Of a stretch of 64,000 bases of DNA, positions 18,203 through 62,439 are shown one piece after another (the first letter of the stretch is position 1; every line of letters starts with the position of its first letter). Under the pieces are notes generated by a model, which saw only the letters and a program-made list of their open reading frames with translations, searched no databases and was not told the DNA's origin. The DNA comes from Kiritimatiellia bacterium (GTDB lineage: Bacteria; Verrucomicrobiota; Kiritimatiellia; RFP12; UBA1067): positions 20,768-84,767 of the forward strand of contig JAPXSY010000004.1 of the NCBI GenBank assembly GCA_033812795.1, given 5' to 3'. The translations under genes and the position numbers were made by a program.

Positions 18203-18205
18203 GAT

Positions 18206-19718: not shown

Positions 19719-19793
19719 AGTTCATTAGTTGATTAGTTCATTAGTGCATTAGTTTTGGCATGATCGCAGGTCGCGGGTCGAATGTCGCGGGTC
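19719..19793. repeat. AGTTSATT octamer array plus inverted copy of the CGACCCGCGA module
   Basis: agttcatt, agttgatt, agttcatt, agtgcatt, agttttgg (19719-19758). 19770-19793 is the perfect reverse complement of 3211-3234 (GACCCGCGACATTCGACCCGCGAC). Located in the divergent tolC/uvrA intergenic region. Confidence 0.85.
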
Positions 19794-20072
19794 AACCTCT
19801 CTTATTGCGGCCACCCAGTGGTCGCAACCGTGAGAGTAAAACAGGGTGACCATCTCAGGGCGACGCCGAATAGGGGCACGGGTTTTCCAAATACCGGGAA
19901 GGTGCTCATACCATGACCGCGAAACGCTGGCTTGGATCGCGTGCGGAAAAGAGCGGTTGACGCCTTTGGGGAGGCTCCGTACACTTCCTTCCCTATCAGG
20001 GGATCAGGCGGCGGACGCGGACGGTCTCCGGAGGCCTGGCCGGGGGCGGACTTGTCCGGCGCGGTGATCTTT

Positions 20073-22901
20073 ATGACAGACATCCTCATCAGTGGCGCGC
20101 GGCAGCATAATCTCAAGAATGTCGATGTGCGCATCCCGCGTGATTCGCTTACGGTGATCACCGGGCTCAGCGGTTCCGGCAAATCGTCGTTGGCGTTTGA
20201 CACGCTCTATGCCGAGGGGCAGCGCCGGTATGTCGAGAGTCTCTCGGCCTATGCGCGGCAGTTTCTGGACCGGATGCAGAAGCCCGACGTGGACCATATC
20301 GAAGGGCTGTCGCCCGCGATCGCAATCGAGCAGCGGACATCCGGCGGGAATCCCCGCTCCGTCGTGGCCACGGTGACGGAGATCCACGATTATCTGCGCC
20401 TGCTGTACGGCAGCATCGGACAGGCGCATTGTCCCGAGTGCGGCAAACCGGTGGGGCGGCAGAGCGCGGAGCAGATCGTGGACCGCCTGTCGGGCGAGCC
20501 AGCGGGAAGCAAGCTGATTCTGCTGGCACCTTTGGTGCGGGGACGCAAGGGTCGGCATGAGGAGGTGCTCGAGGCGGCCCGGCGTCAGGGTTTTGTCCGG
20601 ATCCGTGTGGATGGGAACCTGTTTGCGTTGGACGACGTGCCGCGGCTGGAGAAGAACAAAGCGCACACCCTTGAGGTGGTGGTGGACCGGCTGGTGGCGG
20701 GGGACGGGGTGCATGCGCGGCTCACCGACTCGGTCGAGTTGGGGCTGAAACAGGGTAACGGCCTCATTCTGGTGCAGGTGACCCGGCCGGACGGTAAGAC
20801 GCGCGAGGAGGTGTTTTCCGAAAAGAATGCGTGTCCGGATTGCGGGATCAGTTTTGAAGAGCTAAAGCCGCGGTCGTTCTCCTTCAACAATCCGTATGGC
20901 GCCTGTCCGGTTTGTGCGGGATTGGGCGCCCAATTGGTTTTTGACGAGGAGCGGGTGGTGCCGAACAAAACCCTGTCGCTGGCCGAAGGCGCGATTCAGC
21001 CCTGGCGTCACGGCGGGTTCCGCATGGTGGTTTACTACAAACACCTCACCAAGGCGGTGGCTGCGGCGTACGGGGTGGATTTGAACACGCCGTATCAGGA
21101 GTTGCCCGAGCGTTTCCGGCAGATTCTCCTGCACGGTAGCGGGGAGGAACCGGTGACGCTGCGGTTCTGGATGCGCGGTGCCTGGCGCAAAACCGAAAAG
21201 CCGTTCGAAGGCGTGCTGCCGAGTCTGTTGCGGCGCTACAACGAATCGGAGTTTGACGAGGTGCGGGAAAAACTCCGGCAATACATGAGCCGTCAGACCT
21301 GTCCGGCCTGTCAGGGGGCGCGTCTGCGTCCCGAGGCCCGCGTCTGCACCGTGTCAGGCCGTTCGCTGGTGGAGGTGATGGCCATGACGATCCGGCAGGG
21401 GGTGGCGTTTTTCGACAAACTGAAGTTGGATGCGGCGCAGGCGGCGGCGGTCTCCGAGGTGTTGAAAGAGATTCGCCGCCGGCTCGCGTTCCTTTCGGAT
21501 GTGGGGCTCGATTATCTCTCGCTCGACCGGGAGAGTTCGACCCTTTCCGGCGGCGAGATGCAGCGCATTCGGCTGGCCACGCAGATCGGGTCCGGGCTGG
21601 TCGGTGTGTTGTATGTGCTGGACGAGCCGACGATCGGTCTTCATCCGCGTGACAACGAGCGGCTCATCGGCATGCTGCGCCGGCTGCAGCGGCGCGGCAA
21701 CACCGTGGTGGTGGTCGAGCATGACGAGGAGATGATCCGAAATGCGGACCACATTGTGGATTTGGGGCCCCGGGCCGGACGTCAGGGTGGCGAGGTGGTG
21801 TATCAGGGAGGGTTAAAGGGACTGCTGGCCAGCAGGCATTCCCTGACGGCCGATTACCTGACCGGACGCATGCGGATCGCGATCCCTGAGGCGCGCGTCC
21901 AACCGGGTCCGGCCCGGCTCACCATCAAGGGGGCTGCGGAAAACAATCTCCGGAACATCGATGTGGAGATCCCGCTCGGTTGTTTCGTCTGTGTGACGGG
22001 GGTCTCCGGGTCCGGCAAATCCACACTGGTGGGCGAGATACTCAAGAACTACCTGTTCCGCCATTTCTACGGTTCCAAAGAGCGCGTGGGGGCCTGCAAG
22101 AAAATCACCGGGATCGAAGGGATCGACAGCGTCATCGAGATTGATCAGAGCCCGATCGGGCGCACGCCCCGCAGCAACCCAGTCACCTACACCGGGGCCT
22201 TCACACCGATCCGCAGCCTGTTCGCCGCCACGCCCGCGGCCAAGGTGCGCGGGTACGGTCCGGGGCGCTTCAGCTTCAACGTCAAGGGCGGTCGGTGCGA
22301 AGTGTGCAAGGGGGACGGCGTGCGCTGTCTGGAAATGCACTTTCTGCCGGATGTGTACGTGACCTGCGAGCAATGCGGCGGGCAGCGTTACAATAAAGAG
22401 ACACTGGAGGTCCGGTACGGTGGCAGGAACATCTCCGAGGTGTTGAATCTGACGGTGGACGAGGCGCTCGAGTTCTTTGCCCCGGTGCCGGCGGTCGCCA
22501 AGAAACTGCGGACTCTATCCGAGGTCGGGTTGGGATACATTCATTTGGGTCAGGCCTCGACGACCCTTTCGGGGGGCGAGGCGCAGCGCATCAAGCTGGC
22601 CGCCGAACTGTCGAAGCGCTCGACCGGCCGGACGCTGTATCTGTTGGACGAGCCGACGACCGGCCTGCACTTCGCGGATATTCACAAACTGCTCGATCTC
22701 CTGTTGCGGTTGCGTGAATCCGGCAACACGGTGGTGGTGATCGAACATAATCCGGATGTGATCAAATGTGCGGATCACCTCATTGATCTCGGGCCGGGCG
22801 GGGGGGACGAGGGCGGGTGGCTGGTTGCGACCGGCACGCCGGAGGAGGTCGCCGCCTGCCCGGACTCCGTGACGGGACGCTTTCTGAAGCGGCATCTGTG
22901 A
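20073..22901 (+). CDS. uvrA: excinuclease ABC subunit A
   Basis: [53 protein letters not shown] is the canonical UvrA N-terminus. Second ABC module [10 protein letters not shown] and zinc-finger Cys clusters are present. The ORF-track start at 19932 adds 47 non-conserved residues. Confidence 0.97.
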
Positions 22902-22969: not shown

Positions 22970-23350
22970 CGGGGGACGGTTCCCTGAACCGTCCGCGGAC
23001 GCCTCGGGGAGGCGTCCCTGCCGTGAACCTAAAAAGAGCAGTTGAACCTTCAACTCTCTTGGGTTTCTGGGTTTCAAGGTTTCTGGGTTTCAGGGTTTCA
23101 TCGGGGTCGGGATCGGGATCGCTATCGGGTTTCTGGTTTCAGGATTTCATCCAAATCGGGATCGGGATCGGGTTTCAAGGTTTCAGGGTTTCTGGTTTCA
23201 AGGTTTCTGGTTTCAGGATTTCATCCAAATCGGGGTCGGGATCGGGATCGCTATCGGGATCGATTGCTTCACCACGTGACAAAAGGTAGGGCGGTTTCCC
23301 CGTAAACCGCCGCCGGGCCATGCGGACGCCTCGGGGAGGCGTCCCTGCCG
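22970..23350. repeat. mosaic intergenic repeat region bounded by a perfect 29-bp direct repeat
   Basis: GCGGACGCCTCGGGGAGGCGTCCCTGCCG occurs at 22995-23023 and 23322-23350, and each copy contains a 9-bp-stem palindrome. 23026-23067 is identical to 3064-3105. 23061-23262 holds tandem GGGTTTCWG and GGGATC words. The junction GGTTTCAGGATTTCATCCAAATCGGG is repeated at about 23134 and 23208 (also about 3127). Confidence 0.85.
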
Positions 23351-34159: not shown

Positions 34160-34429
34160 AATCGGTTCGTGACAGGGGGAAGAGTTATCGTGTACGGGTA
34201 CGGGTACGTGAACGGGGTATGGCCAACGTTCACGCTCTCCAAATCGGTATCGGTATCGCTATCGGGTTCGGTATCGCTATCGGGTTCGAAATCGACTGTT
34301 GCGCCCACGCAGTGGCCCGCGGCGACAAGTGTAATGACGGCGGCGATTCCGATCCCGATCCCGATGGCGATAGCGCCGCAATGGGACCCTGAAACGCATG
34401 ACCTTCGGACCCCCCTGTCCCGCCCGTCC
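34160..34429. mobile_element. MITE-like inverted-repeat element (degenerate copy)
   Basis: The left end AATCGGTTCGTGACAGGGGG (34160-34179) is the inverse of the right end region GAAACGCATGACCTTCGGACCCCCCTGTCC (34391-34420). The same termini occur at 50661-50918. The interior holds GGTATC/GCTATCGGG words (34241-34296) and their reverse complement (34345-34375), forming a long imperfect palindrome. Confidence 0.6.
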
Positions 34430-46058: not shown

Positions 46059-47048
46059 ATGTCGCGATCCGGTCATCACCATCATCATCACCGTAATTCT
46101 GTGCGCGCGGAGCGTTCTAAACGAACGGTCGCAGGGGTGCGGACGTCACGTCGTCTTTCCGGCGGCAGAAGGGCGGCCTCGCTTTGTCTGGCTTTTGCGC
46201 TGGCGGGACTCTTCTGCATTGTGGCCGGGGAAGCGGTGCATCACGATCGGACGACCTCCGGGGCGGTAGGCCTGAACATCGCGGCGGGGTTCGCCATCGC
46301 CTTATCTCTTGCGCTGGGACTGATCGCGGTGGCGGTGCAGCAGCGGCAATGGAGCCGTCGTGCGCGTAACCGGCTGGTCCTCGGTTTTCCGATCGCGTTG
46401 CTGAGTCTGCTGATGCTGGTGGTGGATGCCGCGAGCCGGGGCTCGGCCCGCGGCGGACTGGGGAAAGCGGGGCCGTCCCCTTCGGCGTTGGCCTCGCCGG
46501 AGCCGGTCCGCCTCGCGCCGCTCTTCCAGTCTGGTTGGTACGGGGAGGCGCATCAGGACGGATTGCTGTTGGTCGTCACCTCCTTTCACACGAATTCAGT
46601 GGAGAGTCGGGCGTTCAACCGCGCATTGCGCAAGCCGGTCTCCTACGCCACGCTCTCGGTGATCAATCTGGGGAGCGCGGCACCGGTGGTGCTGAGACGT
46701 GCGGAGGTTTTTTTCCTGCTCGACTCCGGCGAAACCCAGTCGAGTCTGGAGGTTAAGCCACTGCTCGCCCCTCATTCGGAGCACGCTGCCCTGCGTAAAC
46801 GGCTTGCCGTACCGCGCGAAGTGAAAGGCGGCGGCATGGTGGCGGATCTGCCGATCTGCGTGGAACGCGATTTCCCTTGGGAACGGGTGGCGGCGGTGCT
46901 CGTTTCGCTGCATGACCGGACCTGCACAATCCCGGGCCGGATGATGACGGAAAAAGAGAAACGGGCGCTGTTGGAACAAAACACGGAACGCGCGTCTACG
47001 GCAAACGCCACCAACCGGGATGCCGAAGCTTGGTTCAAACACCTCTAA
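46059..47048 (+). CDS. hypothetical membrane protein with N-terminal His6 tract
   Basis: MSRSGHHHHHHRNS…, then three predicted TM helices (ASLCLAFALAGLFCIVAG, LNIAAGFAIALSLALGLIAVAV, LVLGFPIALLSLLMLVV), then a soluble C-terminal domain. Confidence 0.6.
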   Translation: MSRSGHHHHHHRNSVRAERSKRTVAGVRTSRRLSGGRRAASLCLAFALAGLFCIVAGEAVHHDRTTSGAVGLNIAAGFAIALSLALGLIAVAVQQRQWSRRARNRLVLGFPIALLSLLMLVVDAASRGSARGGLGKAGPSPSALASPEPVRLAPLFQSGWYGEAHQDGLLLVVTSFHTNSVESRAFNRALRKPVSYATLSVINLGSAAPVVLRRAEVFFLLDSGETQSSLEVKPLLAPHSEHAALRKRLAVPREVKGGGMVADLPICVERDFPWERVAAVLVSLHDRTCTIPGRMMTEKEKRALLEQNTERASTANATNRDAEAWFKHL

Positions 47049-47262
47049 GCCGTGATTTGAATAACCGGCGGTTGCCCTTTCCGGTGCCCGGTTTTAGGTT
47101 TACGAGGCTTGCCAAGACTTACCGTGTTTTGCGATACTAACCCCGTACAGAGTTGAGTAGCCGGTAATGGGCGAGGGTGGTACGGCTACCGGCCGTTGTA
47201 GGCGACAGGGGTTAGGCGGTTTCAACGATGTCGGTAACGGATAATACGGAAAGGAAGTGCGC

Positions 47263-50202
47263 ATGAGAGTAGGGTTGATTACGCTTCTGATTTGTGCCGC
47301 GGGTGTTCAGGCGGAGACGCATGTGTGGCTGGGCGGGGACGGCGCCTACGCGACCCCGGGAAAGTGGGATTCCGGCGTCGTGCCGTCGGCGGGGGACAGC
47401 GTGGTGATCTCCAACGGGTCGGTGACGGTCACGGCAGCCGACACGTTTGCCGAACTGGCATCCGTCACTCTGGGCGAGAACGGCGCGCTCGTGTGCAATG
47501 AAACCGTCGAGACGACGGCCGATGTGGCTTTCGGCGTCAGCAACATCCTCGATGTCACGGCGGGCGAACTGGTTTTCCACGGCTATGCCGGCGGCACCGG
47601 GTTCACGAAAGAGGGCGCGGGCCGGGTGCGTTTCACCGGGGGGGAGAGCGGGGTCACCGCATGGCTCCCCGGTTTGCGGGAGTGCCGGCTTCCGGGGTCG
47701 TTCAACCTCGCCTCGCCGAATACGGGAACGCGGGTGTCGACCGGGCTCGACATGGCGAATACGGTCTGGCCCGCCGATTATACGGACACCACGTTCGCCT
47801 ATGCCGGAGAGATCTATCTGGACGGATCGCGGTACACCTTCGCCGAGCGTGTGGACGATAACGCCTATCTCGAAATCGGCGGCACGGTCGTGCTTTCCAA
47901 CAGTTCTTACACCGCGGTCTCGGAGGGGTCGATCCAGCCTGCGGCCGGCTGGCACCCGATCAATCTGCGGGTCGGGAACGCAAGCGGCGCGGGCGGCTCG
48001 CTGAACGTGCATGCCACGGGCGGCGGGATCGCCTGGAGGAAAGAGGGCGCCGTATGGCAGAGGCTGCGTGATTTCAGCGGCGGCATGGCCCTGCGCGCCC
48101 CCGGCCGGCTGGCCGCGGGGTTCTCGGAAGGGATCACCCTCAACAATGGATCGGTTGTGGTGCTCACCGAGACCGCCGCCGGTTCGGCGGGCGACGCATC
48201 CGCGAACTCCCTCGGCGCGCTCGCGCTGAACGCGGGCACGCTCATCCTCTCCAACGCCGCGTGCCGCGCCTCTGCCCTTGACGGGAACGCGTCCGCCCTC
48301 CTCCGTCTGGATCTGGCCGGGCTCACCCTGTCGAACGAGACGGACAGCGTCTATCCCGGCAAAACCTCAGGCGTTGGCACGCTGATTAAGGACGGCGCCG
48401 GCCGGTTGCAGTGGCAGGCCCGCAGCGTCTCGCACTACGCGCACTCCGCGACGATCGTCAACAACGGCATGGTCGCGCTCGGCGATTCCGGATCCTGGCT
48501 GGGGGACTATAACTTCGGCACCTTCACCGTGAATCAGCCCGGCATGGTGAACACCCTCATCAACGGCAACACGCAGTTCGACAGCCTCTGGGGCGACGGG
48601 GTCATGACCAACAGCACAGGCCTTTCCGCTTACCAGCAACTGCGGATACAAACCGGGCCGTGCGAATTCGCGGGCATCATCAGCGGGAAGATCCGGTACT
48701 ACTCCAGAGGCAATGTCGCGCTCACCGGCACCGACAGCACGTTCGCCGGAAATTTCGCCGTCCACAGCAGCGGCGGCCCGGGCATCACGGGGCTCAAGAA
48801 AATCGGCCTCACCGGACAGCCCTCCTCCATGGGGACTTCCGGCACCATCGACATCCGCGAAAATGGCGGCACGCTCCGTTATCTCGGGACCGGGGAGACC
48901 ACCGACAAAAACTTCCTCCTCTATCCGTCCGGCACCCGGGCGGTGATTGACGGCGGCGCGCACGGCGGGGTGACCTTCAACGGAAAATGGAGCACCACGG
49001 GCGGCCGGCTCGTCCGTCTCGCGCTCAAGGGAACCAACGCCGCGCCCTGCGTCTTCAACGGCGAATATAACGAGCATTCGATGAACGGCACAAACTACTC
49101 GACCTATATCGCCAAAGAGGATCCCGGCGTTTGGGTGTTCAAGCACCATGCGGGCCGCTCCAACCGCGGGGTGATCGACGTGCGGGAGGGAACGCTCCAA
49201 TTCGAGTCGATCGCCGAGGCGGGGCAGATCTGTTCGCTGGGGCGTTCGGACCTCCTGTTCGAGGACGTGATCAACAATAACACGAACGGGCTCGGGGTCG
49301 CTTACGCGTTCAGTCTCGGAACCCCGTCGACAACCGGCACGCTGGAGTATATCGGCGCCTACAGCGCCAGTTGCGCGACGCGCAGGCTCGTCCTGCAGGG
49401 GGACGGACGGTTGAAGTCCGACGGCGCGCCGTTGTCGTTCAGCGGCGGGGTCGAGTCCCTCACCGCAGGCGGCAAGACCCTCTATCTCGACGGCGGCGCG
49501 ACCAATGCGCTCGGTACGGTCGCGGACGGCGCGGGGACGGTCGGCATCACGAAAGAGGGCTCCGGCACCTGGTGCCTCGCCGCAACCAACGCGTTCACCG
49601 GCCCGCTGGAGGTGAAGGCCGGGCGGGTGGTGCTGGACAAACGGGGTTACGCCTACTACCGTTTCAACCTGCTGCAGCGGAACTACGGCAACACGGTGGC
49701 CGACACCAACATCGAACTCACCGAGTTCGCCCTGTACAGCGCCGACGGGGTGCGCCGCAATCTGAATCTCGCCAAGAACGGCACCAACAATGTGTCCGCG
49801 CTCCGGCCCGGCGAGTTCTGCCCCATGGGGTCGTATCAAACCTATGGGGTTCGGAATGACGACAAGTTGTTTGACGGCGATAGCGATTCGCAGTGGACGG
49901 TCAACACGGTCGGCTTTCTGCCGCACACGCCGATCCGGCTGGTGATGCGTCTGGCGGAGGACACACCGCCCATCACGGGGTACGATTTACAATACTGGCC
50001 TGCGGCGGCTGACCGTTTTCTCTCGGGTTGGTCGGTCGAGGGCAGCCGTGACGGCGTGACCTGGGATCTGCTCGACAGCGTGATGGATTACCAGCCGGTG
50101 CCTCCCGCGGGCATGGGCGGCACGGAGATGGCGGACAGAAAGCGGCGAACAAGTTTCGGTGCCTCCCGCGGGCATGGGCGGCACCGTCAAATGGTGGTAT
50201 AG
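47263..50202 (+). CDS. giant secreted autotransporter-associated beta-strand-repeat (PATR) protein with C-terminal discoidin-like domain; reading frame broken at about 50124
   Basis: Signal peptide MRVGLITLLICAAGVQA, with AAGGAAG 5 nt upstream of the ATG at 47263. Repeated W-GG-G-W / TKEGAGRV / IKDGAGRLQW / ITKEGSGTWCLAATNAFTGPLEVKAGRVVL PATR-style units. FALYSADGV…WSVEGSRDGVTWDLLD is F5/8-type-C-like. The last 26 residues (EMADRKRRTSFGASRGHGRHRQMVV) are out-of-frame junk after a 61-bp insertion. Confidence 0.8.
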   Translation: MRVGLITLLICAAGVQAETHVWLGGDGAYATPGKWDSGVVPSAGDSVVISNGSVTVTAADTFAELASVTLGENGALVCNETVETTADVAFGVSNILDVTAGELVFHGYAGGTGFTKEGAGRVRFTGGESGVTAWLPGLRECRLPGSFNLASPNTGTRVSTGLDMANTVWPADYTDTTFAYAGEIYLDGSRYTFAERVDDNAYLEIGGTVVLSNSSYTAVSEGSIQPAAGWHPINLRVGNASGAGGSLNVHATGGGIAWRKEGAVWQRLRDFSGGMALRAPGRLAAGFSEGITLNNGSVVVLTETAAGSAGDASANSLGALALNAGTLILSNAACRASALDGNASALLRLDLAGLTLSNETDSVYPGKTSGVGTLIKDGAGRLQWQARSVSHYAHSATIVNNGMVALGDSGSWLGDYNFGTFTVNQPGMVNTLINGNTQFDSLWGDGVMTNSTGLSAYQQLRIQTGPCEFAGIISGKIRYYSRGNVALTGTDSTFAGNFAVHSSGGPGITGLKKIGLTGQPSSMGTSGTIDIRENGGTLRYLGTGETTDKNFLLYPSGTRAVIDGGAHGGVTFNGKWSTTGGRLVRLALKGTNAAPCVFNGEYNEHSMNGTNYSTYIAKEDPGVWVFKHHAGRSNRGVIDVREGTLQFESIAEAGQICSLGRSDLLFEDVINNNTNGLGVAYAFSLGTPSTTGTLEYIGAYSASCATRRLVLQGDGRLKSDGAPLSFSGGVESLTAGGKTLYLDGGATNALGTVADGAGTVGITKEGSGTWCLAATNAFTGPLEVKAGRVVLDKRGYAYYRFNLLQRNYGNTVADTNIELTEFALYSADGVRRNLNLAKNGTNNVSALRPGEFCPMGSYQTYGVRNDDKLFDGDSDSQWTVNTVGFLPHTPIRLVMRLAEDTPPITGYDLQYWPAAADRFLSGWSVEGSRDGVTWDLLDSVMDYQPVPPAGMGGTEMADRKRRTSFGASRGHGRHRQMVV
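50096..50184 (+). repeat. perfect 28-bp direct repeat flanking a 33-bp insert (61-bp period) inside the adhesin gene
   Basis: CGGTGCCTCCCGCGGGCATGGGCGGCAC occurs at 50096-50123 and 50157-50184. Removing one repeat unit plus the spacer (61 nt) fuses frame 1 (…PVPPAGMGGT) to ORF 50159..50611 (PPAGMGGTVKWWYSTG…). Confidence 0.9.
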
Positions 50203-50931: not shown

Positions 50932-51055
50932 GGACATGACGAACCGCCCTTTTTTTGCTTTAATTAAGAAATGAATCGGAGAAGGACGGGAAATCCGTGC
51001 TTCAGGGGGCATGGATACCCGGGCGCAGCCATGCAACGATCAAAGGAGTAAGACG

Positions 51056-52408
51056 ATGGAGACCATGACATTCAATCGGAGGACGTTCCTCAAATCCACG
51101 GCCGCCGCAGCCGCCGTGTTGCCGACCTTCAACATCCTGAGCCAAGAGGCAAAGACCATTGGCCCCGATGATGATCAGGTCAACGCGGCCGTGATCGGCT
51201 ACGGCGCCGAGGGTGAGATTTTGGCGGACGCCGCGATGAAGATCCCCGGTGTGCGTTTCAAGGCGGTCTGCGACATCTGGGACTACCGCCGCAAGATGGC
51301 GCGCGGCCGCATGCGCGCGCTGGGTCACGATGTCAAGGTCTACGAAGATTACCGTGAGATGCTTGACAAAGAGGACAAGAACATCGACTGCGTGATCGTC
51401 GCGACCCCGGACTGGATGCATGCGGAACACAGCGTCTACTGCATGGAGAAGGGCAAGCACGTCTATTGCGAAAAGGAGATGTCCAACCGTCTGGAGAAGG
51501 CCAAGGAGATGGTTCTGGGTCAGCGCCGCACCGGCAAGATCTTCCAGATCGGCCACCAGCGCCGCTCCAATCCGCGCTACATCCACGCGATCAACCGCGT
51601 GATCCGCGAGGCCAACATGCTGGGCCGCGTGACCCACGCCTACGGCCAGTGGAACCGTTCGGTCGCTCCCTTCCTGACCGTGCGCGACCGCCTCAACATC
51701 CCGACCGAGACGCTCCAGAAGTACGGCTACGAGAACATGGAGCAGTTCCTCAACTGGCGCTGGTTCGATAAGTACGGCGGCGGCCCGATGGTCGACCTTG
51801 GCTCGCACCAGATCGACCTCTTCTTCTGGGTCTGGGACTGCGTGCCGGTCACGGTCACCGCAATCGGCGGCAATGACTACTACAACCGCCAGATGAACGA
51901 CAACGTGATGGCGATTTACGAATTTAAGACCAAGGAGGGCGTGATCAACCGCGCCTACTATCAGGTGCTGACGACCTCCAGCCGCGGCGGCTTTTACGAG
52001 CAGTTCATGGGCGAGAACGGCTCGCTCACCATCTCCGAGATCGCGGCCCGCGGTAATGCGGTGCAGCGCGAAGTGCGCGACGGCGTGCCGGACTGGGAGC
52101 AGTTCGCCAAGAAGGGTCTGGTGCTGCCGGTCAGGAAGCCGGTGGCCGCGGCTGTCACCTCCAACGCGGCGCTCGACGTGCGCGTGACCGCCGAGGCCGA
52201 TGGCTGGCCGTTGCCGGTCGATCTGCTCAAGCCGGCGCACATGCCGCATCTGGAAAACTTCTTCCTCGCCGTGCGCCGTAACAAGCCCGAGCTTCTGACC
52301 TGCCCGGTCGAATTGGCGTACGAGTCGGCAGTGGCGGTGCTGGCGGCCAACCGTTCGGTCGCTGAAGGGAAGACCATTACCTTCAAGCCGGAAGATTTCA
52401 AAGTTTAA
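51056..52408 (+). CDS. Tat-exported Gfo/Idh/MocA-family oxidoreductase
   Basis: METMTFNRRTFLKSTAAAAAVLPTF contains a perfect twin-arginine motif (RRTFLK). Rossmann segment AAVIGYGAEGE and YCEKEM (EKP-like motif). AAAGGAG lies 7 nt upstream of the ATG at 51056. Confidence 0.9.
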   Translation: METMTFNRRTFLKSTAAAAAVLPTFNILSQEAKTIGPDDDQVNAAVIGYGAEGEILADAAMKIPGVRFKAVCDIWDYRRKMARGRMRALGHDVKVYEDYREMLDKEDKNIDCVIVATPDWMHAEHSVYCMEKGKHVYCEKEMSNRLEKAKEMVLGQRRTGKIFQIGHQRRSNPRYIHAINRVIREANMLGRVTHAYGQWNRSVAPFLTVRDRLNIPTETLQKYGYENMEQFLNWRWFDKYGGGPMVDLGSHQIDLFFWVWDCVPVTVTAIGGNDYYNRQMNDNVMAIYEFKTKEGVINRAYYQVLTTSSRGGFYEQFMGENGSLTISEIAARGNAVQREVRDGVPDWEQFAKKGLVLPVRKPVAAAVTSNAALDVRVTAEADGWPLPVDLLKPAHMPHLENFFLAVRRNKPELLTCPVELAYESAVAVLAANRSVAEGKTITFKPEDFKV

Positions 52409-52471: not shown

Positions 52472-55201
52472 ATGAAAAAGTTTCTCTCTATCATACTGGC
52501 CTGCGCGATCGTCCCGGCGTTTGCGAAGGTCGAGTCGCACTGGGACGGCGGGCGTAACACGCCGGTGCACCGTCTCAACCTGAATGACGAGTTCGGCGAT
52601 GTGATTGTGCCCGGCACGCCCAACGCCCTGCCGTTGAGCACGCGTCAGACCTGCGGTCAGTGCCATGATTACGACACCATCGCGTCCGGCTGGCATTTCA
52701 ATATGTCCTGCACAAATGCGGTGCACGGCCGTAGCGGCCAGCCTTGGTTCCTGATCGATCCGCTCAGCGGGTCGCAGATCCCGATGAGCCTGCGCGGCTG
52801 GCAGGGTACGCATACGCCCGGCCAGCTCGGCATGACCGACTGGGAGTGGGTCTACGCCTTTGGCCGTCACATGCCGGGCGGCGACCGCGCTGATCCCAAG
52901 GATCTCTACGCCGAAGGCGGGCCGCGCGCCCGCTGGGACGTGTCGGGGCCCGTTGAAATCAACTGTTTCGCCTGCCACAGCCGGAACGCGGAATACGACC
53001 ATAGCGAGTGGGTGCGCCTGATTCTGCGCCAGAACTTCCGCTGGGCCGCCACCGGCGCCCTCGGGCTGGGCGACATCCGCGGTATGGGTTCGCGTGTGGC
53101 GGACTATTGGGGCGTGCTGCGCGGCCTGAACCGGGACGATTCGGTCTTTGCCGTGCCGCCGCATGTGGTCTATGATATGCGGCAGTTCGATGCCAAGAAC
53201 CGCACGGTGTTACAGGTTGGTGCGCCGCGCAATGAAAACTGCTTGAGTTGCCACTCGACGTCGCAGGCCGGCATGCCGCATAAAGACATTGACGGCGATG
53301 TGCATCTGCGCGCCGGCATGAGCTGCGCCGACTGCCACGGCAATGGCGAAAACCACGCCATCGCGCGCGGTTACGAAGGCGACACCACCGGCAAGATGGA
53401 CAAGACCCGCGCCAGCGCGAGTTGTGTGGGTTGCCACGTGGGTTCGGATTGCGCGCGCGCCGGTCGTCACGGCGCGCCTGCGCCGCAGCATGTCGGCATT
53501 CCGGTCAGTCACTTCAGGGCTCTGAGCTGCACGACTTGTCACTCCGGCGTGACCGAGGACGGGGCGCTGGCGGAGGTGCGCACCTCGCGCGCCAATCGTA
53601 TGGGTGTCTACGGGCGCGCCCGCTGGGCCACGCCGCAGCCGTTCATTCTGGAGCCGGTCTTCGTGCGCAACGAGACGGGCAAAATCGAGCCGCGCCGCAT
53701 GGTCTGGCCTGCCTTCTGGGGTGTCCGCGCTGAAAACGATGCCGCGTCGATCTCGCCGCTCCGTCCCGAAACCGTGACCGAGGCTTGCACGGGCCTGCTG
53801 GACGTGCGCGAGCAGATCGGGTTGGTTCTGGGGGCACTTGCGACCGACCCCAGCATTCCGGGAATCCCGGTGCTGGCGATCGACGGCAAGCTCTTCAAGC
53901 GGCATCTGGACGGTTATGCCGAGCCGGCCGGCGACACGACGCAGGCGGACGGGTTCTATTACCAGACCGCGACCAACCTGATCGCCGTCATTCCGCCCTT
54001 TGATCCAAACGCTGACACTGAGAAGATGAATGAAGCGCAGCTTGAGGCGCGTCAGAACAACGAGAAGCGGCTGGGGAACCTCTTGCAGACGCTTGATGCC
54101 GCGCCGATGGCTGTGACCAACGGCTTTGGCGCGGTGGTTTATGGCGACAAGCTCTTCTTCCGCGGCGGCGATGGCGAAGCCATGATCAGCACCAACGCGC
54201 CGGCCAAGGTCGATGCACCGGTCGTAGGCTGGTACAAAGACGGTGCCTTCACCGCGCTGGTTTCCGAGTACGCCGCCAAGAATGTCAAGGAACTGGGCGG
54301 CAGCGCGTGCTCGATCACCGAAACGATGGTCGCCGCCGTGCTCAAGCGGCTTACCGAAGTTGGACATGCCCGCGCGGTTTACGTTGCGCACGGTCAGGTC
54401 TGGGAGTTGAAGGCCGACGGCAGCCTGAGTGCCCAGGTCGCGAAAGTCGCGGAACCGGTCTCGTGGGCGGTGGGGCATGACGTGCGTCCCGCGCGCATGG
54501 CCCGCGGCGCGCGGCCGTCCAAGTGCAACGACTGCCATACGGTGGGGTCCACGTTTTTCTTCACCAAAGTCGCGTCGACGGGTCCGTTGCTGACTGCGCG
54601 TAAGCTGGTCAAGATGCAGCACGATTTCATGGGTCTCAGCGGCAGCTACAACAAGGTCTTCGGTACTACCTTCCTGATGCGTCCGTTCTTTAAGGTCTTC
54701 CTCTGGACGGTCTTTGTGATCTTGATGCTGGTCACGGTGGCCTTTGCGGCAGCGGCGGTGCCGGCGGTGCTCGACAAGGGCGGCATCCCGTACGGCAAGC
54801 CGTCCGAACAGTTGATGACGATGATCGACCGTGGTGCGGCGATCACTTTGGCACTTGCCAGTGCTTACCTGTGCCTCTCCGGATTGCTGGGCTGGTTCTT
54901 CCATCTGCTGGTCGGCTATATCTTGGTCTTCCACATGGTGGGCGGTGGGATCTTCGCGGCCTGCCTGCTGGTGCTGATCTGGTTGCGCGGCGGGCGTCGT
55001 ATCGCGAATCCCCGGCGTAACATGCTTTGGATGATCGTCATGCTGCTGGGTGTCGGCGTGGTCTTTACGGCGGTGGCACCGATGATGACCTGGTTCGGCG
55101 AGGGCTGGCAGTGGCTGATGCTCTGGTGCCACCGCCTCGTGACGATGGCGTTCCTGGCCGTTGCGGTCTGGATGCTGCTCACCGGCGGGCGCAAGGAGTA
55201 G
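52472..55201 (+). CDS. heptaheme c-type cytochrome fused to a C-terminal multi-TM module
   Basis: Sec signal MKKFLSIILACAIVPAFA. Seven CxxCH motifs (CGQCH, CFACH, CLSCH, CADCH, CVGCH, CTTCH, CNDCH). The last about 190 aa form 4-5 TM helices with conserved-looking His (FFHLLVGYILVFHMVGG, WCHRLV). Confidence 0.88.
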   Translation: MKKFLSIILACAIVPAFAKVESHWDGGRNTPVHRLNLNDEFGDVIVPGTPNALPLSTRQTCGQCHDYDTIASGWHFNMSCTNAVHGRSGQPWFLIDPLSGSQIPMSLRGWQGTHTPGQLGMTDWEWVYAFGRHMPGGDRADPKDLYAEGGPRARWDVSGPVEINCFACHSRNAEYDHSEWVRLILRQNFRWAATGALGLGDIRGMGSRVADYWGVLRGLNRDDSVFAVPPHVVYDMRQFDAKNRTVLQVGAPRNENCLSCHSTSQAGMPHKDIDGDVHLRAGMSCADCHGNGENHAIARGYEGDTTGKMDKTRASASCVGCHVGSDCARAGRHGAPAPQHVGIPVSHFRALSCTTCHSGVTEDGALAEVRTSRANRMGVYGRARWATPQPFILEPVFVRNETGKIEPRRMVWPAFWGVRAENDAASISPLRPETVTEACTGLLDVREQIGLVLGALATDPSIPGIPVLAIDGKLFKRHLDGYAEPAGDTTQADGFYYQTATNLIAVIPPFDPNADTEKMNEAQLEARQNNEKRLGNLLQTLDAAPMAVTNGFGAVVYGDKLFFRGGDGEAMISTNAPAKVDAPVVGWYKDGAFTALVSEYAAKNVKELGGSACSITETMVAAVLKRLTEVGHARAVYVAHGQVWELKADGSLSAQVAKVAEPVSWAVGHDVRPARMARGARPSKCNDCHTVGSTFFFTKVASTGPLLTARKLVKMQHDFMGLSGSYNKVFGTTFLMRPFFKVFLWTVFVILMLVTVAFAAAAVPAVLDKGGIPYGKPSEQLMTMIDRGAAITLALASAYLCLSGLLGWFFHLLVGYILVFHMVGGGIFAACLLVLIWLRGGRRIANPRRNMLWMIVMLLGVGVVFTAVAPMMTWFGEGWQWLMLWCHRLVTMAFLAVAVWMLLTGGRKE

Positions 55202-55216: not shown

Positions 55217-56170
55217 ATGACATCCCAGGTCCACAGGTTTGAGCACCAAGCCATGTCGACGGTGTTCGAGCTGTTGATCGCGACAGAAGATCGGCAGCTT
55301 GCCCAAAGCGCGGCTTATGCGGTGTTCAAAAAGGTGGACGGTCTGGAGGAGCTGATCAGCCGCTTCCTCGACGTGAGCGAGGTGGCGCTGATCAGCCGCC
55401 TGAAGCCGGGTGAGACCTTCCGCGTGGCGCCGGAGCTGATGGAGTTGCTGCTGACCGCCACGCGCGTCTGCGCAGCCACGCAGGGCGCGTTTGATGTGAC
55501 GGTCGGCCCGGTGATGGACGCCCTGCGCGAGGTCAAGCACCGCTGGCGCGCGTTGACGCCGCAAGAGCGCGAAAGCGCCTTGGCCGCGTGCGGCATGAAC
55601 CGGCTGGTTATCGACACCGAAAACCTGCTGATCGCGGTGCAGCCCGACCGCATGGGACGCGCCTCGCCGCTGGAGCTGGATTTCGGCGCCATCGGTAAGG
55701 GCTACGCGCTGGATGTGGCATGCCGCATGTTGACGGAGGACTGGGACTTTGCCGACTTCCTGATGCACAGCGGCACCAGCACCGTGATCGCGCGCGGGAC
55801 GATGGGCGACGGTCAGCCGGGCTGGCCGGTGAGCGTGGGCGGCGATTGGCGCGAACGCGCCGGTTTGCACCATGTGCGGCTTAGCGAGGGCGCGATCAGC
55901 GGGTCGGGCTTTGATGTGAAAGGCGCGCACGTTGTGGACGTGCGTCGCGGCGTCGCGGCATCGCGGCATCCTGCCGCATGGTCGTACGCCCCGGCGGCGG
56001 CGGTGTCGGATGCGCTTTCGACCGCCTGCCTCGGACTGGGATGGAGAGAGATTTGCGCCGCATGCGCGGCGTTGGAAGGATGCGGTGCTTTGGTGGCGCG
56101 GGCGCAGCCCGTGTGGATGGACCGGTTGAGAAGTCCGGTGAGGCAATATGGTGCCTTTCCCGCCGTTTAA
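55217..56170 (+). CDS. apbE: FAD:protein FMN transferase (ApbE family), no signal peptide evident
   Basis: AMSTVFELLIA…FDVTVGP…DFGAIGKGYALD…SGSGF are typical ApbE motifs. The N-terminus MTSQVHRFEHQ has no hydrophobic or lipobox segment. Confidence 0.85.
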   Translation: MTSQVHRFEHQAMSTVFELLIATEDRQLAQSAAYAVFKKVDGLEELISRFLDVSEVALISRLKPGETFRVAPELMELLLTATRVCAATQGAFDVTVGPVMDALREVKHRWRALTPQERESALAACGMNRLVIDTENLLIAVQPDRMGRASPLELDFGAIGKGYALDVACRMLTEDWDFADFLMHSGTSTVIARGTMGDGQPGWPVSVGGDWRERAGLHHVRLSEGAISGSGFDVKGAHVVDVRRGVAASRHPAAWSYAPAAAVSDALSTACLGLGWREICAACAALEGCGALVARAQPVWMDRLRSPVRQYGAFPAV

Positions 56171-56261: not shown

Positions 56262-56930
56262 ATGAAGCACACAGGAATGATGTTGGCGGCTGTTGTGGCG
56301 GGCCTTGCCGTGGTGGCGGGCGCGCAGGACGGAGCCAAGGTGCAGTTGAAGATCGAACTGCCGAAACCGCAGTTCACGGGTACGCCCAAAGACATTCGCT
56401 CGCCGAACCTCGAGCCGGCCCGCGGCGGCAAGCCGCGTCCGCCGATTGATGTTCCGGCTGGCGCTGACAAGGTGCTCTCGAAAGACTGCAAGGTCACGTC
56501 GAGCGATCCAGAGCCGATCATCGGCGAGCTGTCGTTCATCACGGACGGCGACAAAGAGCATGACGCCGCGACGTATGTCGAACTCGGCCCCGGCACGCAG
56601 TGGGTGCAGGTCGATCTGGGCAAGGAGAAGGAAGTCTACGCCGCGTGCGTGTGGCACTACCACGGCGAGGCGCGCGTCTATCGTGACGTGGTCTGCCAGA
56701 TTTCCAATGATCCTGACTTCATCGACGGCGTCGTGACGGTCTTCAACAACGACCATGACAATTCCTCGAAGCTGGGTGAAGGCAAAGAGAAAGAGTATAT
56801 CGAGACCAACGAGGGCCGTCCTTTCGCCGTCAGTGGCGTGAAGGGCCGTTACGTCCGCTTCTACAGCAAGGGCAACACCTCGAACGAGATGAACCACTAC
56901 ACGGAGATTGAAGTGTACGGCAAGCCCTGA
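56262..56930 (+). CDS. secreted discoidin (F5/8 type C) domain protein
   Basis: Signal MKHTGMMLAAVVAGLAVVAGAQ. …TYVELGPGTQWVQVDLGKEKEVYAACVWHYH…GRYVRFYSKGNTSNEMNHYTEIEVYG is the discoidin pattern. AAGGAGG lies 5 nt upstream. Confidence 0.85.
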   Translation: MKHTGMMLAAVVAGLAVVAGAQDGAKVQLKIELPKPQFTGTPKDIRSPNLEPARGGKPRPPIDVPAGADKVLSKDCKVTSSDPEPIIGELSFITDGDKEHDAATYVELGPGTQWVQVDLGKEKEVYAACVWHYHGEARVYRDVVCQISNDPDFIDGVVTVFNNDHDNSSKLGEGKEKEYIETNEGRPFAVSGVKGRYVRFYSKGNTSNEMNHYTEIEVYGKP

Positions 56931-56938
56931 GCGGGAGT

Positions 56939-57015
56939 AGGAGTTGGGATTTAGGATTTAGGATTTAGGATTTAGGATTTAGGAGTTAGGAGTTAGGATT
57001 TAGGATTTAGGAGTT
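56939..57015. repeat. tandem heptamer array AGGAKTT x11
   Basis: aggagtt, gggattt, aggattt x4, aggagtt x2, aggattt x2, aggagtt as contiguous 7-mers starting 9 nt after the discoidin stop codon. A related TTTAGGATTCAGGAGG forms the RBS region of trx (57158-57173). Confidence 0.9.
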
Positions 57016-57181
57016 GATGTTTCTGAATCCGAAACCTGACTTCGGCAACAAGAGCGGCGTGGCGGGCAAACGGGTCCGTCCGCCGCCTGTTTTGTTGCGT
57101 AAGAAATTGACGCATTGGGCCGGTTCCTGATATGTTGTCCGAAACCATCAGGATGGGTTTAGGATTCAGGAGGACGAAACG

Positions 57182-60484: not shown

Positions 60485-60538
60485 GCAACGCCTTCCGGGA
60501 TATTGGCGCAGACGCGCGGGACGTATGGGGAATCAGGC

Positions 60539-61132
60539 ATGAATGAGAAGGAAGGGCAGGAAGTGACGCGCAGGAACGCGCTGGCCTGGTTGTTGCGGGT
60601 TGGCGCGGGCGCGGCGATAACCGCCGCGGCCGTCCAAGCCACACGGCGGGCTTCGGGCAAGCGGACGGTCTGGCAGATCGATCCGCGCAAGTGCATTCAG
60701 TGCGGGCGTTGCGAAACCGAATGCGTGCTCCACCCGTCGGCGGTGAAGTGTGTTCACGGGTACGCGATGTGCGGGTATTGCAAACTCTGTTTTGGCTATT
60801 TCCAACCGGATGCCGCGCGTCTTGATGAGGCGGCGGAGAACCAGATTTGCCCGACCGGTGCGATCCGCCGCCAGTTCATTGAATCACCCTACTTCGAGTA
60901 TCACATCGATGAAGCGCGTTGCACGGGCTGCGCCCTCTGCGTGAAGGGGTGCACACATTTCGGCAACGGGGCGCTGTATCTTCAGATCCGGCATGACCGG
61001 TGTGTCGGATGCAACGCCTGCCGTATCGCGGAGGCGTGTCCGGCTCAGGCTATTATGCGGGTGTCGGCCGACACCCCATACCTGCTGAAAGAAAAACTGG
61101 GGCCGTCCGGCCCAAAGGAATCGGACGGATGA
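60539..61132 (+). CDS. Tat-signal periplasmic polyferredoxin (NapG/MauM-like)
   Basis: MNEKEGQEVTRRNALAWLLRVGAGAAITAAAVQA is Tat-like. Four Cys clusters: CIQCGRCETEC, CGYCKLC…ICPTGAI, CTGCALCVKGC, CVGCNACRIAEACP. Confidence 0.8.
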   Translation: MNEKEGQEVTRRNALAWLLRVGAGAAITAAAVQATRRASGKRTVWQIDPRKCIQCGRCETECVLHPSAVKCVHGYAMCGYCKLCFGYFQPDAARLDEAAENQICPTGAIRRQFIESPYFEYHIDEARCTGCALCVKGCTHFGNGALYLQIRHDRCVGCNACRIAEACPAQAIMRVSADTPYLLKEKLGPSGPKESDG

Positions 61133-62439
61133 AGCGGCCGGGGTGCATCCGGAAACGGGCGGGTCTGGCGGGTATGCTGTTGCCGTTGGTTACCTGGGCG
61201 GCCGATCCGCGTTTTCCACAACCGCAATTCGAATCGGGGCATACGCTGCCGCAGACGCCGCATCCGGCCTTTGTGGAGCAGGTGCCTGCTTGGATGGATG
61301 TGCTGTTGCTCGCGTTGGCTTTGGGCATAGCGGTCTGGCTGGTGCGGCGATTGCGGTCGCGACGCGGCGTATTGCTCTTTTCGCTGCTCTGCTTGGGGTG
61401 GTTTGGTTTTGTGCGGCGCGGATGCGTCTGTCCGGTCGGGGCGGTGCAAAATGTGGCAGAGGCCATGTGGAATGGCGGCGGGTTGCCGTGGTTTGTGGCC
61501 GCAATCTTCGTTTTGCCGCTGTTCGCGACGCTTCTGTATGGCCGGGTGTTTTGTGGCGCGGTATGCCCGTTAGGCGCGTTACAGGATCTTTTCATCATCC
61601 GGCCGCAGCGGGTACCCCGAGCCGTGGATGCGGTGTTGCGGTTGGTGCCGCTCGGGGTGCTTGCGCTGGGTGTGGTGGCTGCGGTCAACGGCGCGGGGTA
61701 TCTGATCTGCCAATGGGACCCCTTTGTGGGGCTGTTCCGGCGCAGCGCGCCGATGACGGTGATGTTAACCGGGATGGCCGTTCTGTTCGTGGGGATGGTG
61801 GTGGCGCGTCCGTACTGCCGTTATTTCTGCCCATACGGTGTGCTGCTGGAGTTTTGCGCGGGGTTGGCGTGGCGTCCGGTGACGATCCCCTCGCGGACAT
61901 GTGTCAACTGCCGGTTATGTGTCGGCACGTGTCCGGTTGGCGCGGTCACGGCACCGCGGGAGGTGACGTCCGGTGCGGAACGGAAGCGGCTTTTCCGGCG
62001 GTTTGTGACGTTGGCGGTGCTGATGCCGCTCGGTGTGCTTTTATGCGCAAGTACAGGCTGGCTGACCGGTGCTTGGGTCGCACGGGCGCATCCTGCGGTG
62101 AGGATGGCGGAAGTGCTCGCGACGGTACCGCAGGAGGCGGCGGATCAGCATCCCGAACTCGAGGCGTTTCGACGCGGGGGCGCGTCGCGTGATGAGGCTG
62201 AGGCATACGCTGCTGAAGCAGTGCGGCGTTTCCGAGCGGGGGGGGCCGGTGCCGGCGTATTTGTGGGGGTGGTGATGGGCCTGCGGCTTTTGGGGATGAC
62301 ACGGCTGCGACGGCGCCCGCTGCATGAGGCGGACCGGATGCGGTGTGTTGCCTGCGGCCGCTGTTGGGACGCGTGCCCCCTGAACCGGTCTGTTGCCGGA
62401 ACCTCAGGATCGACGTCTGACGGCCCTTCAGTGGGCTGA
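61129..62439 (+). CDS. membrane polyferredoxin (NapH/MauN/NosR-like, CX3CP motifs)
   Basis: ATGA overlap with the upstream gene. TM helices carry FCGAVCPLGA and YCRYFCPYG (CX3CP). C-terminal CVNCRLCVGTCPVGA and CVACGRCWDACP are 4Fe-4S motifs. Confidence 0.8.
   Translation: MKRPGCIRKRAGLAGMLLPLVTWAADPRFPQPQFESGHTLPQTPHPAFVEQVPAWMDVLLLALALGIAVWLVRRLRSRRGVLLFSLLCLGWFGFVRRGCVCPVGAVQNVAEAMWNGGGLPWFVAAIFVLPLFATLLYGRVFCGAVCPLGALQDLFIIRPQRVPRAVDAVLRLVPLGVLALGVVAAVNGAGYLICQWDPFVGLFRRSAPMTVMLTGMAVLFVGMVVARPYCRYFCPYGVLLEFCAGLAWRPVTIPSRTCVNCRLCVGTCPVGAVTAPREVTSGAERKRLFRRFVTLAVLMPLGVLLCASTGWLTGAWVARAHPAVRMAEVLATVPQEAADQHPELEAFRRGGASRDEAEAYAAEAVRRFRAGGAGAGVFVGVVMGLRLLGMTRLRRRPLHEADRMRCVACGRCWDACPLNRSVAGTSGSTSDGPSVG

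Follow-up and report, generated by a model that had tools for sequence, protein, structure and literature searches.

Introduction

How does a sugar dehydrogenase that works outside the cytoplasm, with its nicotinamide cofactor bound to the protein, pass on its electrons? Many polysaccharide-degrading bacteria, among them Kiritimatiellota, Planctomycetota and Bacteroidota, export dehydrogenases of the Gfo/Idh/MocA family, and the re-oxidation of the bound cofactor is an open question, raised explicitly for BT2158 of Bacteroides (PMC8121099). A locus of a Kiritimatiellia bacterium (GenBank assembly GCA_033812795.1, contig JAPXSY010000004.1, forward strand, positions 20,768 to 84,767) poses it in a concrete form. 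We refer to this stretch of 64,000 nucleotides (nt) as the window, and all coordinates are those of the window unless another locus is named. It contains a four-gene unit, called the cassette in the following, which encodes a Gfo/Idh/MocA dehydrogenase (GFO) with a signal for twin-arginine translocation (TAT), a cytochrome c with seven heme motifs and a C-terminal membrane module (cyt), an ApbE-family protein and a secreted discoidin-like protein. The structural part of our reading is highly probable: the cytochrome carries seven c-type hemes and one b-type site of FdnI ancestry. For the functional part we see about an even chance that the cassette is a periplasmic sugar-dehydrogenase:quinone oxidoreductase, most plausibly driven by a glycoside 3-dehydrogenase.

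A heptaheme cytochrome family without a solved relative

The cytochrome of 909 amino acids (aa) contains exactly seven CxxCH motifs, starting at residues 61, 165, 257, 285, 318, 353 and 685; CxxCK motifs and variants with longer spacing (CxnCH) are absent from the protein. Seven motifs are far beyond chance: when the residues of the protein were shuffled 20,000 times, no more than two motifs arose, and two arose in just two shuffles. The signal peptide is predicted to put the multiheme domain on the periplasmic side, and after Sec export the periplasmic part would comprise about 715 aa. Hemes 6 (C353) and 7 (C685) are separated by 327 heme-free residues. The original prediction, which had been made from the letters of the window, named seven motifs in a periplasmic part of roughly 700 aa with a large heme-free insert between the last two; both statements held.

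The gene is real. A homologue search of 5.8 billion proteins found more than 485 relatives of conserved length, most of them about 900–1000 aa, and those with a named source are labelled Kiritimatiellae. When one genome per GTDB species was scanned, relatives occurred in at least 415 species genomes from Kiritimatiellia, Phycisphaerae, Aminicenantes/Acidobacteriota and Sumerlaeota. Cultured isolates of Pontiellaceae are among the carriers of the cassette.

Alignments were constructed from 19 and from 84 sequences with identities down to 37%. All seven CxxCH motifs are invariant in the 84 full-length homologues, and so are seven further periplasmic His (H33, H75, H278, H295, H340, H347 and H669). 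Exactly seven motifs are encoded in 82 of the 84 fetched loci; the remaining two are truncated. Since the extra invariant His equal the hemes in number, bis-His ligation is possible for every c-heme; the covalent attachment of the hemes and this coordination are both predicted. A catalytic heme of the nitrite- or sulfite-reductase type was considered and rejected on the same grounds, with no CxxCK motif and seven spare invariant His in the protein.

Searches of Pfam and NCBIfam with the cytochrome gave merely generic, mostly sub-threshold multiheme matches at residues 250–360. In the PDB, the only matches to phmmer and to a profile of the 84 sequences were NrfA and octaheme reductases, each over a heme-packing motif some 50 residues long. 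Thus no family with an established function matched the whole cytochrome in Pfam, NCBIfam or the sequence and profile searches of the PDB, an outcome on which the original prediction had partly staked itself. The cytochromes are a family without a curated entry or a solved relative. No description of them turned up in literature searches on Kiritimatiellae multihemes, on pairs of Gfo/Idh/MocA proteins and cytochromes, on acceptors of glycoside 3-dehydrogenases and on the heme ligands of FdnI.

An AlphaFold model of the full-length cytochrome from the 84-sequence alignment reached a predicted local distance difference test (pLDDT) score of 81 and a predicted template modelling (pTM) score of 0.79. 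Residues 390–680, between hemes 6 and 7, were modelled as a well-folded beta-rich domain (pLDDT about 90), for which there was no Pfam match at expectation values (E) up to 10 and no sequence or profile match in the PDB. Foldseek found nothing with E below 0.6 for the full-length model in the PDB; the method is ill-suited to helical bundles and to multiheme folds modelled without heme. The heme-free domain may be a docking domain.

The membrane module resembles a cytochrome b of the FdnI type

The original prediction had also proposed a C-terminal module of four to five transmembrane (TM) helices and about 190 aa, with His residues that would mark a b-heme or quinone module wired to the periplasmic multiheme chain. 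Hydropathy gives five TM segments (residues 738–766, 788–810, 813–838, 851–873 and 881–904) in a module of about 175 aa. The motifs FFHLLVGYILVFHMVGG at residues 809–825 and WCHRLV at 885–890 are both present in the cytochrome. Two of their His, H821 (VFHMVGG, in TM3) and H887 (WCHRLV, in TM5), are invariant in the 84-sequence alignment, whereas H811 is not conserved. In 147 module-bearing representative clusters, His occupies the H821 position in 145, the H887 position in all 147 and the H811 position in just 11. Three further residues are also kept, M871 in 143, Q880 in 138 and R888 in 129 of these representatives. The idea of a b-heme module wired to the heme chain is therefore supported by H821 and H887 but not by H811, and the module has kept one site for a b-heme rather than two.

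Hydropathy and the positive-inside rule place H821 and H887 each 7–8 residues inside the periplasmic face. Because the c-heme domain must be periplasmic, the strongly basic loop 839–850 and the C-terminal RKE must be cytoplasmic, and this places the two His near the periplasmic face.

Relatives with a divided gene reveal the ancestry of the module. The heptaheme protein of Aminicenantes, and that of several further lineages, stops after TM1, and the b module is the next gene, which encodes a membrane protein of 160–240 aa with the same motifs, HxxAGG and HRY. Homologues thus keep the TM module with its two His, fused or as the next gene, and the prediction passes in this respect too. The split b subunits of loci L045, L052 and L060 match PF01292 (Ni_hydr_CYTB, prokaryotic cytochrome b561 of the FdnI/HydC type) with E between 5e-19 and 6e-10, those of L045 and L052 with about 1e-18 to 1e-19. 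In comparisons with hhalign the window's module matched the split subunits at 99.8% (E 2e-29) and the PF01292-type subunits of L045 and L052 at 95% (E 3.6e-8), while split and PF01292-type subunits matched each other at 98.5%. Among 1.84 billion representatives, 997 clusters matched a profile of the module at E up to 1e-3, mostly standalone proteins of 140–250 aa. PF01292 was matched by 88 of 140 relatives found in this way, and DUF4405 weakly by three.

The b subunit of L045 was aligned with FdnI (cytochrome b556) of Escherichia coli (1KQF_C; E 1.5e-13). In this alignment H821 corresponds to H57 and H887 to H155, and the equivalents of H18 and H169 are not His in the window's cytochrome. In the 2002 work of Jormakka et al., H57 and H155 are said to be the ligands of the periplasm-side heme bP, and H18 and H169 those of the cytoplasm-side heme bC. 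This assignment agrees with the independent topology inference for H821 and H887. In Fdn-N, too, an anchor helix from the electron-transfer subunit precedes a b subunit of four helices; a match to PF09163 has E 1e-3. By this comparison, TM1 is an anchor helix like that of FdnH, and TM2–TM5 are a diverged FdnI/HydC-type cytochrome b that has kept only the ligands of the periplasm-side heme. The mono-heme state looks derived, because 40 of the 147 module relatives retain a His at the H169-like position. The b subunits of L045, L052 and L060 appear to be evolutionary intermediates between the di-heme and the mono-heme forms. The features of the cytochrome and its neighbours are collected in Table 1.

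Table 1. Features of the cassette in the window, and of three related loci (L045, L052, L060). Residue numbers refer to the encoded protein.
Feature	Position	Strand	Description
gfo	51011..52408	+	TAT-signal Gfo/Idh/MocA NAD-dependent sugar dehydrogenase gene; 465 aa from first ATG; directly upstream of cyt
Likely GFO start	M16 or M19		Just ahead of RRTFLK
cyt	52472..55201	+	Heptaheme cytochrome gene; 909-aa membrane-anchored protein, seven c-hemes and a putative single b-heme; ATG start
Signal peptide, Sec type (predicted)	52472..52528	+	Residues 1-19, ...PAFA/KV; hydrophobic N-terminus, kept in homologues
Region of hemes 1-6	52652..53542	+	CxxCH at residues 61, 165, 257, 285, 318, 353
CxxCH motifs of hemes 1-6	52652-52666, 52964-52978, 53240-53254, 53324-53338, 53423-53437, 53528-53542	+	
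Candidate distal ligands in the region of hemes 1-6	H33, H75, H278, H295, H340, H347		Invariant
Heme-free beta-rich domain	53639..54511	+	Roughly residues 390-680; lies between hemes 6 and 7; about 290 aa
CxxCH motif of heme 7	54524..54538	+	C685-H689, about 50 residues ahead of TM1; candidate distal ligand H669
TM1, anchor helix without His	54683..54769	+	Counterpart of the anchor at the C-terminus of the heptaheme subunit where the gene is split
TM2-TM5, four-helix cytochrome-b module	54779..55198	+	PF01292/FdnI lineage, mono-heme form (predicted)
Proposed ligands of heme bP	H821 (54932-54934), H887 (55130-55132)	+	
Conserved residues of the b module on the periplasmic side	L800, G804, M871, Q880, R888		
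H811 (in FFHLL)	54902-54904	+	Not conserved
apbE	55217..56170	+	ApbE-family FAD:protein FMN transferase gene; 317 aa, no signal peptide; downstream of cyt
Discoidin gene	56262..56930	+	Secreted F5/8-type-C (discoidin/CBM32-like) protein; 222 aa; fourth operon gene
Terminator-like GC hairpin with T-run	57060..57097	+	3' of the four-gene unit; read from the sequence, weak evidence
b-subunit genes after the heptaheme gene	L045:8351-9070, L052:8312-9058, L060:3873-4607		Canonical four-His PF01292/FdnI type

The cassette is conserved across phyla

The gaps between the four genes in the window are 63, 15 and 91 nt. The order gfo-cyt(-b subunit)-apbE-F5/8C recurs in almost every related locus of Kiritimatiellia, Phycisphaerae, Aminicenantes and Sumerlaeota; the stop codon of gfo often overlaps the start codon of cyt, and apbE comes after cyt or the b-subunit gene in nearly every locus. 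A promoter and terminator consensus scan of the operon did not list the hairpin downstream of the discoidin gene.

GFO matches the N- and C-terminal GFO_IDH_MocA domains and TAT_signal in Pfam. Its best NCBIfam match, below the cut-off, is the glycoside 3-dehydrogenase family BT_2158_fam, and its best solved relatives are DgpA (7xr9) and a glucuronide 3-dehydrogenase (8tdi). Conserved in 68 orthologues are the Rossmann motif GxGxxG (G63/G65/G68), D88, the catalytic pair E154-K155, the D-x3-H residues D262..H266, and R23..F26 of the twin-arginine signal. The GFOs of the cassettes form an orthologous group of their own, with scores of 450–1000 bits among them versus 25–90 bits for GFO paralogues of the same locus.

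The ApbE protein matches PF02424 (E 3.5e-34), and its PDB matches are ApbE/Ftp proteins. D93, K161-G162, S228-x-S230-G231, H238, D265 and T269 are each conserved to at least 95% in 58 orthologues, which makes the protein catalytically plausible as a transferase of flavin mononucleotide (FMN) from flavin adenine dinucleotide (FAD). About 40 orthologues from several phyla lack a signal peptide, and the domain begins about 10 residues from the N-terminus. The best 120 listed relatives are all single-domain proteins of 305–320 aa with no fusions. A published census of ApbE proteins threw out those without a signal peptide (bioRxiv 10.1101/2021.01.07.425746), so that the cassette would have escaped it. 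The families of GFO, cytochrome, ApbE and discoidin protein contain no conserved [S/T]GA[S/T] flavinylation motif, no Ser or Thr is conserved in the cytochrome's cytoplasmic loops in the 84-sequence alignment, and Pfam scans of the cassette proteins found no FMN_bind, DUF2271 or similar domain. Possibilities for the target of ApbE are a non-canonical flavinylation of the TAT substrate before export, hitch-hiking of ApbE through the TAT system, or a substrate encoded elsewhere.

The discoidin protein matches F5_F8_type_C in Pfam (E 1.4e-6) and, weakly, the carbohydrate-binding module (CBM) of AlyQ. A PKPxFxGTP motif at its N-terminus is conserved.

Some loci vary the scheme. At the gut/rumen-type loci L035, L047, L064, L067 and L068 the stop and start codons of cyt and apbE overlap, neither gfo nor the discoidin gene is nearby and a gene of the MotA/TolQ/ExbB family lies upstream. 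In marine Kiritimatiellales a gene for a PF01261 xylose-isomerase-like TIM barrel lies between cyt and apbE (L042:8238-9260, and the same position in L056). A gene of the PD-(D/E)XK superfamily holds this place in L039 (8534-9247), L050 and L071, of the marine Kiritimatiellales/Pontiellaceae set.

On the complete Kiritimatiellae-type chromosome OW818680.1, gfo-cyt-apbE is immediately preceded by genes for the alpha and beta subunits of electron-transfer flavoprotein (ETF) and for ETF:quinone oxidoreductase (L001:2857-6498), which suggests that electron inputs to the quinone pool are clustered at this locus. In the window a NapG-like ferredoxin gene (60503-61132, +), whose product has several 4Fe-4S clusters and a TAT-like signal, is followed by one for a membrane Fer4_5 protein of the NapH/MauN/NosR type (61000-62439, +). 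This NapGH-like pair lies about 5 kb downstream of the cassette and could be another quinol-linked module for electron transfer in the periplasm. Together with the ETF:quinone oxidoreductase genes of L001, the pair suggests that these organisms have a quinone pool.

Other features of the window

The heptanucleotide TAGGATT is repeated in tandem at 56938-57012 (10.7 copies, 92% matches), directly after the stop codon of the discoidin gene and ahead of the hairpin. Other tandem repeats with units of 6–8 nt lie at 3100-3242, 5625-5689, 9066-9120, 19719-19754, 23061-23223 and 34243-34294, several of them between large open reading frames (ORFs). Their units are GGTTTCAT, TCGGTA, AGTGCATT, AGTTCATT, GGGTTTCA and ATCGGT, in 4–8 copies each. 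Such short tandem repeats seem to occur throughout the genome of this organism.

Upstream of the cassette lies the gene of a secreted protein of 981 aa (47257-50202, +) with a match to the passenger-associated transport repeat (PATR) and repeats rich in Gly, Thr and Ser. It is preceded by an ORF (46059-47048, +) whose product starts with a run of six His (MSRSGHHHHHHR...) and has TM-like hydrophobic segments but no Pfam match. The regions 6613-12160 (-), 13923-19669 (-) and 19932-22901 (+) encode subunits I, B and A of a V/A-type ATPase, an efflux system of the resistance-nodulation-division (RND) type and UvrA. The RND system consists of AcrB-like and HlyD-like proteins and an outer-membrane factor; with the ATPase and UvrA it forms an ordinary chromosomal context.

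Proposed function

In the reading that we prefer, the TAT-exported GFO, with tightly bound nicotinamide adenine dinucleotide or its phosphate (NAD(P)), would oxidise a sugar outside the cytoplasm, and the cytochrome would re-oxidise the GFO-bound NAD(P)H through its chain of c-hemes. Electrons would pass along the c-hemes to heme 7 at the membrane surface, from there to heme b between H821 and H887, and finally to menaquinone at a site near the periplasmic face. This position of the site would make the last step non-electrogenic. A possible role of the discoidin protein is to bind the glycan substrate.

Two lines of reasoning favour this scheme. TAT-exported Gfo-type enzymes hold non-exchangeable NAD(P), and the periplasm has no NAD pool. 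The conserved and translationally coupled cytochrome is the obvious acceptor for GFO. Furthermore, alcohol/ketone couples lie below menaquinone in redox potential, and this favours the direction from GFO to the quinone. For the periplasmic, TAT-exported Gfo-type enzyme BT2158 the electron acceptor is not known (Liu et al. 2021; PMC8121099). The direction of electron flow, a physical coupling between GFO and the cytochrome and the role of ApbE are parts of the scheme that we infer.

Several observations weigh against the scheme. We read the binding of heme b and of quinone from the sequence of the module, which has no direct Pfam match (residues 698–909 at E up to 10; residues 770–909). A focused AlphaFold model of the 185-aa module had a pLDDT of 85; a Foldseek search with it returned nothing with E below 0.6, by a method that is ill-suited to helical bundles, and the match of best probability, to the di-heme TM domain of NOX5 (0.51), is not significant. 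In FdnI the quinone site sits at the cytoplasm-side heme; that heme is missing here, and a quinone site on the periplasmic (P) side must therefore be postulated. Transfer of hydride from bound NAD(P)H to a heme normally needs a flavin. A flavinylation motif is not recognisable in any of the four cassette proteins, and the neighbouring ApbE is cytoplasmic, judged by its lack of a signal peptide. Finally, the five gut/rumen-type loci keep cyt and apbE with no adjacent gfo.

Alternative explanations

Electrons could flow in the reverse direction. The cytochrome would then be a menaquinol oxidase like CbcL, CbcBA or CymA that delivers electrons to periplasmic or extracellular acceptors, and GFO would either act as a terminal reductase or have no functional connection with it. 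One heme b on the P side would fit the oxidation of quinol, which also takes place at the periplasm-side site of NarI. The hosts, mostly anaerobes, could use an additional electron sink. Moreover, the nearest known architectures, CbcL (PMC6295460) and CbcBA (bioRxiv 10.1101/2021.04.15.440034), are quinol oxidases of extracellular electron transfer. However, no outer-membrane conduit and no further cytochrome gene was found in or near the cassette at any locus, and the sole redox enzyme conserved beside the cytochrome is the dehydrogenase-type GFO. Reduction of a ketone or of NAD+ by menaquinol would also be uphill. We consider reverse flow unlikely.

A second possibility concerns the missing flavin and refines the proposed oxidoreductase without excluding it. 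An FMN attached covalently by ApbE would be the obligatory converter from two-electron to one-electron transfer between bound NAD(P)H and the hemes. Its carrier would be GFO, modified before TAT export, or else the cytochrome or the discoidin protein, modified after ApbE has hitch-hiked through the TAT system. The position of apbE after cyt in virtually all loci, including those with no adjacent gfo, argues for such a relay, as do the transferase-type residues that ApbE retains; the absence of a signal peptide across phyla fits the modification of a TAT substrate that is folded in the cytoplasm. ApbE systems are also known to pair with membrane cytochromes b (PMC11334425). On the other hand, neither a conserved [S/T]GA[S/T] motif nor a domain of the FMN_bind or DUF2271 kind occurs in the cassette proteins, and the hitch-hiking of ApbE is pure speculation. 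We know of no flavinylated Gfo/Idh/MocA protein. An obligatory relay of this kind is quite doubtful.

The boldest version of this idea takes the cassette for a new respiratory entry point, in which covalent FMN from the cytoplasmic ApbE, at a non-canonical site, would convert hydride to single electrons; the FMN would be installed before TAT export or after TAT hitch-hiking of ApbE. It is rather improbable. If true, it would provide the first flavinylated Gfo-family enzyme or the first ApbE substrate modified before export, and would answer how periplasmic Gfo-type dehydrogenases dispose of their electrons. Such dehydrogenases are very numerous in bacteria of the Planctomycetota-Verrucomicrobiota-Chlamydiota (PVC) group.

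It is very unlikely that the TM region is a mere anchor, with His of a structural or metal-binding kind and electrons exchanged with soluble periplasmic partners alone. This explanation would account for the window module's lack of direct Pfam and significant structural matches and for the loss of two of the four canonical heme ligands. Yet the retained His are exactly the pair that ligates one heme in FdnI. Conservation of this pair is close to 100% across some 150 diverse clusters, in which M871, Q880 and R888 are conserved with it. Four conserved helices, and a separate conserved gene in relatives, are not needed for anchoring.

Also very unlikely, and the least probable of the alternatives, is a multiheme enzyme with a catalytic function, such as a reductase of nitrite, hydroxylamine, sulfite or tetrathionate, for which the TM module would be a quinol-oxidising anchor. 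Weak local matches near hemes 4–5 to NrfA and octaheme reductases speak for it, but they span about 50 residues of heme-packing motif and score 20 bits versus a cut-off of 375. All seven motifs are CxxCH, none is CxxCK, and each heme can be paired with an invariant extra His, which leaves no obvious open site.

Implications

The proposed periplasmic sugar-dehydrogenase:quinone oxidoreductase would answer the question raised above in a concrete form that can be tested, and would do so for four phyla at least: electrons would leave through a dedicated heme wire to the quinone pool. If it is true, periplasmic oxidation of glycosides would be a respiratory electron input in organisms that are usually called fermenters. 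The cytochrome would then define a mono-heme offshoot of the FdnI/HydC family of cytochromes b, and the cassette would provide a context for ApbE in which a cytoplasmic enzyme stands beside a TAT substrate.

Comparison with known systems

The architecture of the cytochrome is of a known, CbcL-like kind; its operon context is undescribed in the literature that was searched. Fusions of a multiheme c domain with a TM module are uncommon, as the original prediction had stated, but they have precedents in CbcL (PMC6295460) and, divided between two genes, in CbcBA (bioRxiv 10.1101/2021.04.15.440034).

CbcL of Geobacter sulfurreducens is likewise a single polypeptide whose N-terminal multiheme c domain lies in the periplasm and whose C-terminal membrane domain is a HydC/FdnI-like cytochrome b; it is an inner-membrane bc-type quinol oxidase that presumably joins the quinone pool to a heme wire (PMC6295460). 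Compared by description, not by sequence, as was CbcBA, it has nine CxxCH motifs, six TM helices and up to five candidate His for two b-hemes, whereas the cytochrome has seven motifs, five helices and two conserved His for one b-heme. Unlike CbcL, the cytochrome contains the heme-free domain of about 290 aa, and its partners are GFO, ApbE and the discoidin protein instead of components of extracellular electron transfer.

CbcBA of Geobacter consists of the seven-heme CbcA with a C-terminal TM anchor and the di-heme CbcB with four TM helices (bioRxiv 10.1101/2021.04.15.440034). The split-gene relatives of our cytochrome are built alike, with a heptaheme c subunit that ends in an anchor helix and a separate b subunit of roughly 220 aa. 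However, the order in Geobacter is cbcB-cbcA, whereas the relatives encode c before b, and the genomic context differs. Most b subunits of the relatives have two heme-ligand His instead of three or four, and the anchor helix of the cytochrome has no His.

With FdnH and FdnI of E. coli the cytochrome shares the succession of an anchor helix of an electron-transfer subunit and a four-helix b subunit (PF01292). FdnI, in the work of Jormakka (2002), reportedly holds two hemes and reduces menaquinone on the cytoplasmic side as part of a redox loop. Only the equivalents of H57 and H155 survive in the cytochrome, and for this reason electron transfer across the membrane and generation of a proton-motive force (pmf) by the b module are unlikely.

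Proteins of the NapC/NirT/NrfH/CymA group are membrane-anchored multiheme cytochromes c. Their electron exchange with menaquinol takes place at the periplasmic face and generates no pmf, which is the mode proposed here for the cytochrome. They differ in their single N-terminal TM helix, four hemes, lack of a b module and quinol site at heme 1. Membership of the cytochrome in this group was rejected, as its TM helices are C-terminal and no hidden Markov model of the family matches beyond a sub-threshold NrfB-like one. The system of pentaheme ActA and NrfD-type ActC was rejected for its wrong topology; no NrfD- or ActA-type match occurs in the cytochrome or its neighbours.

Cytochromes b associated with flavinylation (DUF4405, MsrQ-like, PepSY-like) are also b-heme membrane proteins encoded beside apbE; they have six TM helices (as monomer or dimer), four central His, an exported ApbE and [S/T]GA[S/T] substrates (PMC11334425). 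The cassette has two His, a signal-less ApbE and no such motif. Its ApbE also differs from characterised respiratory ApbEs, which have an extracytosolic signal peptide or lipobox and an adjacent motif-bearing substrate.

The closest parallels to GFO are the periplasmic glycoside 3-dehydrogenases of the BT2158 and DgpA type, which are TAT-exported Gfo/Idh/MocA proteins with bound NAD(P), like the GFO of the cassette. For BT2158 a second sugar has been proposed in the role of the acceptor (PMC8121099). The cassette GFO, unlike BT2158, has a dedicated cytochrome gene immediately downstream.

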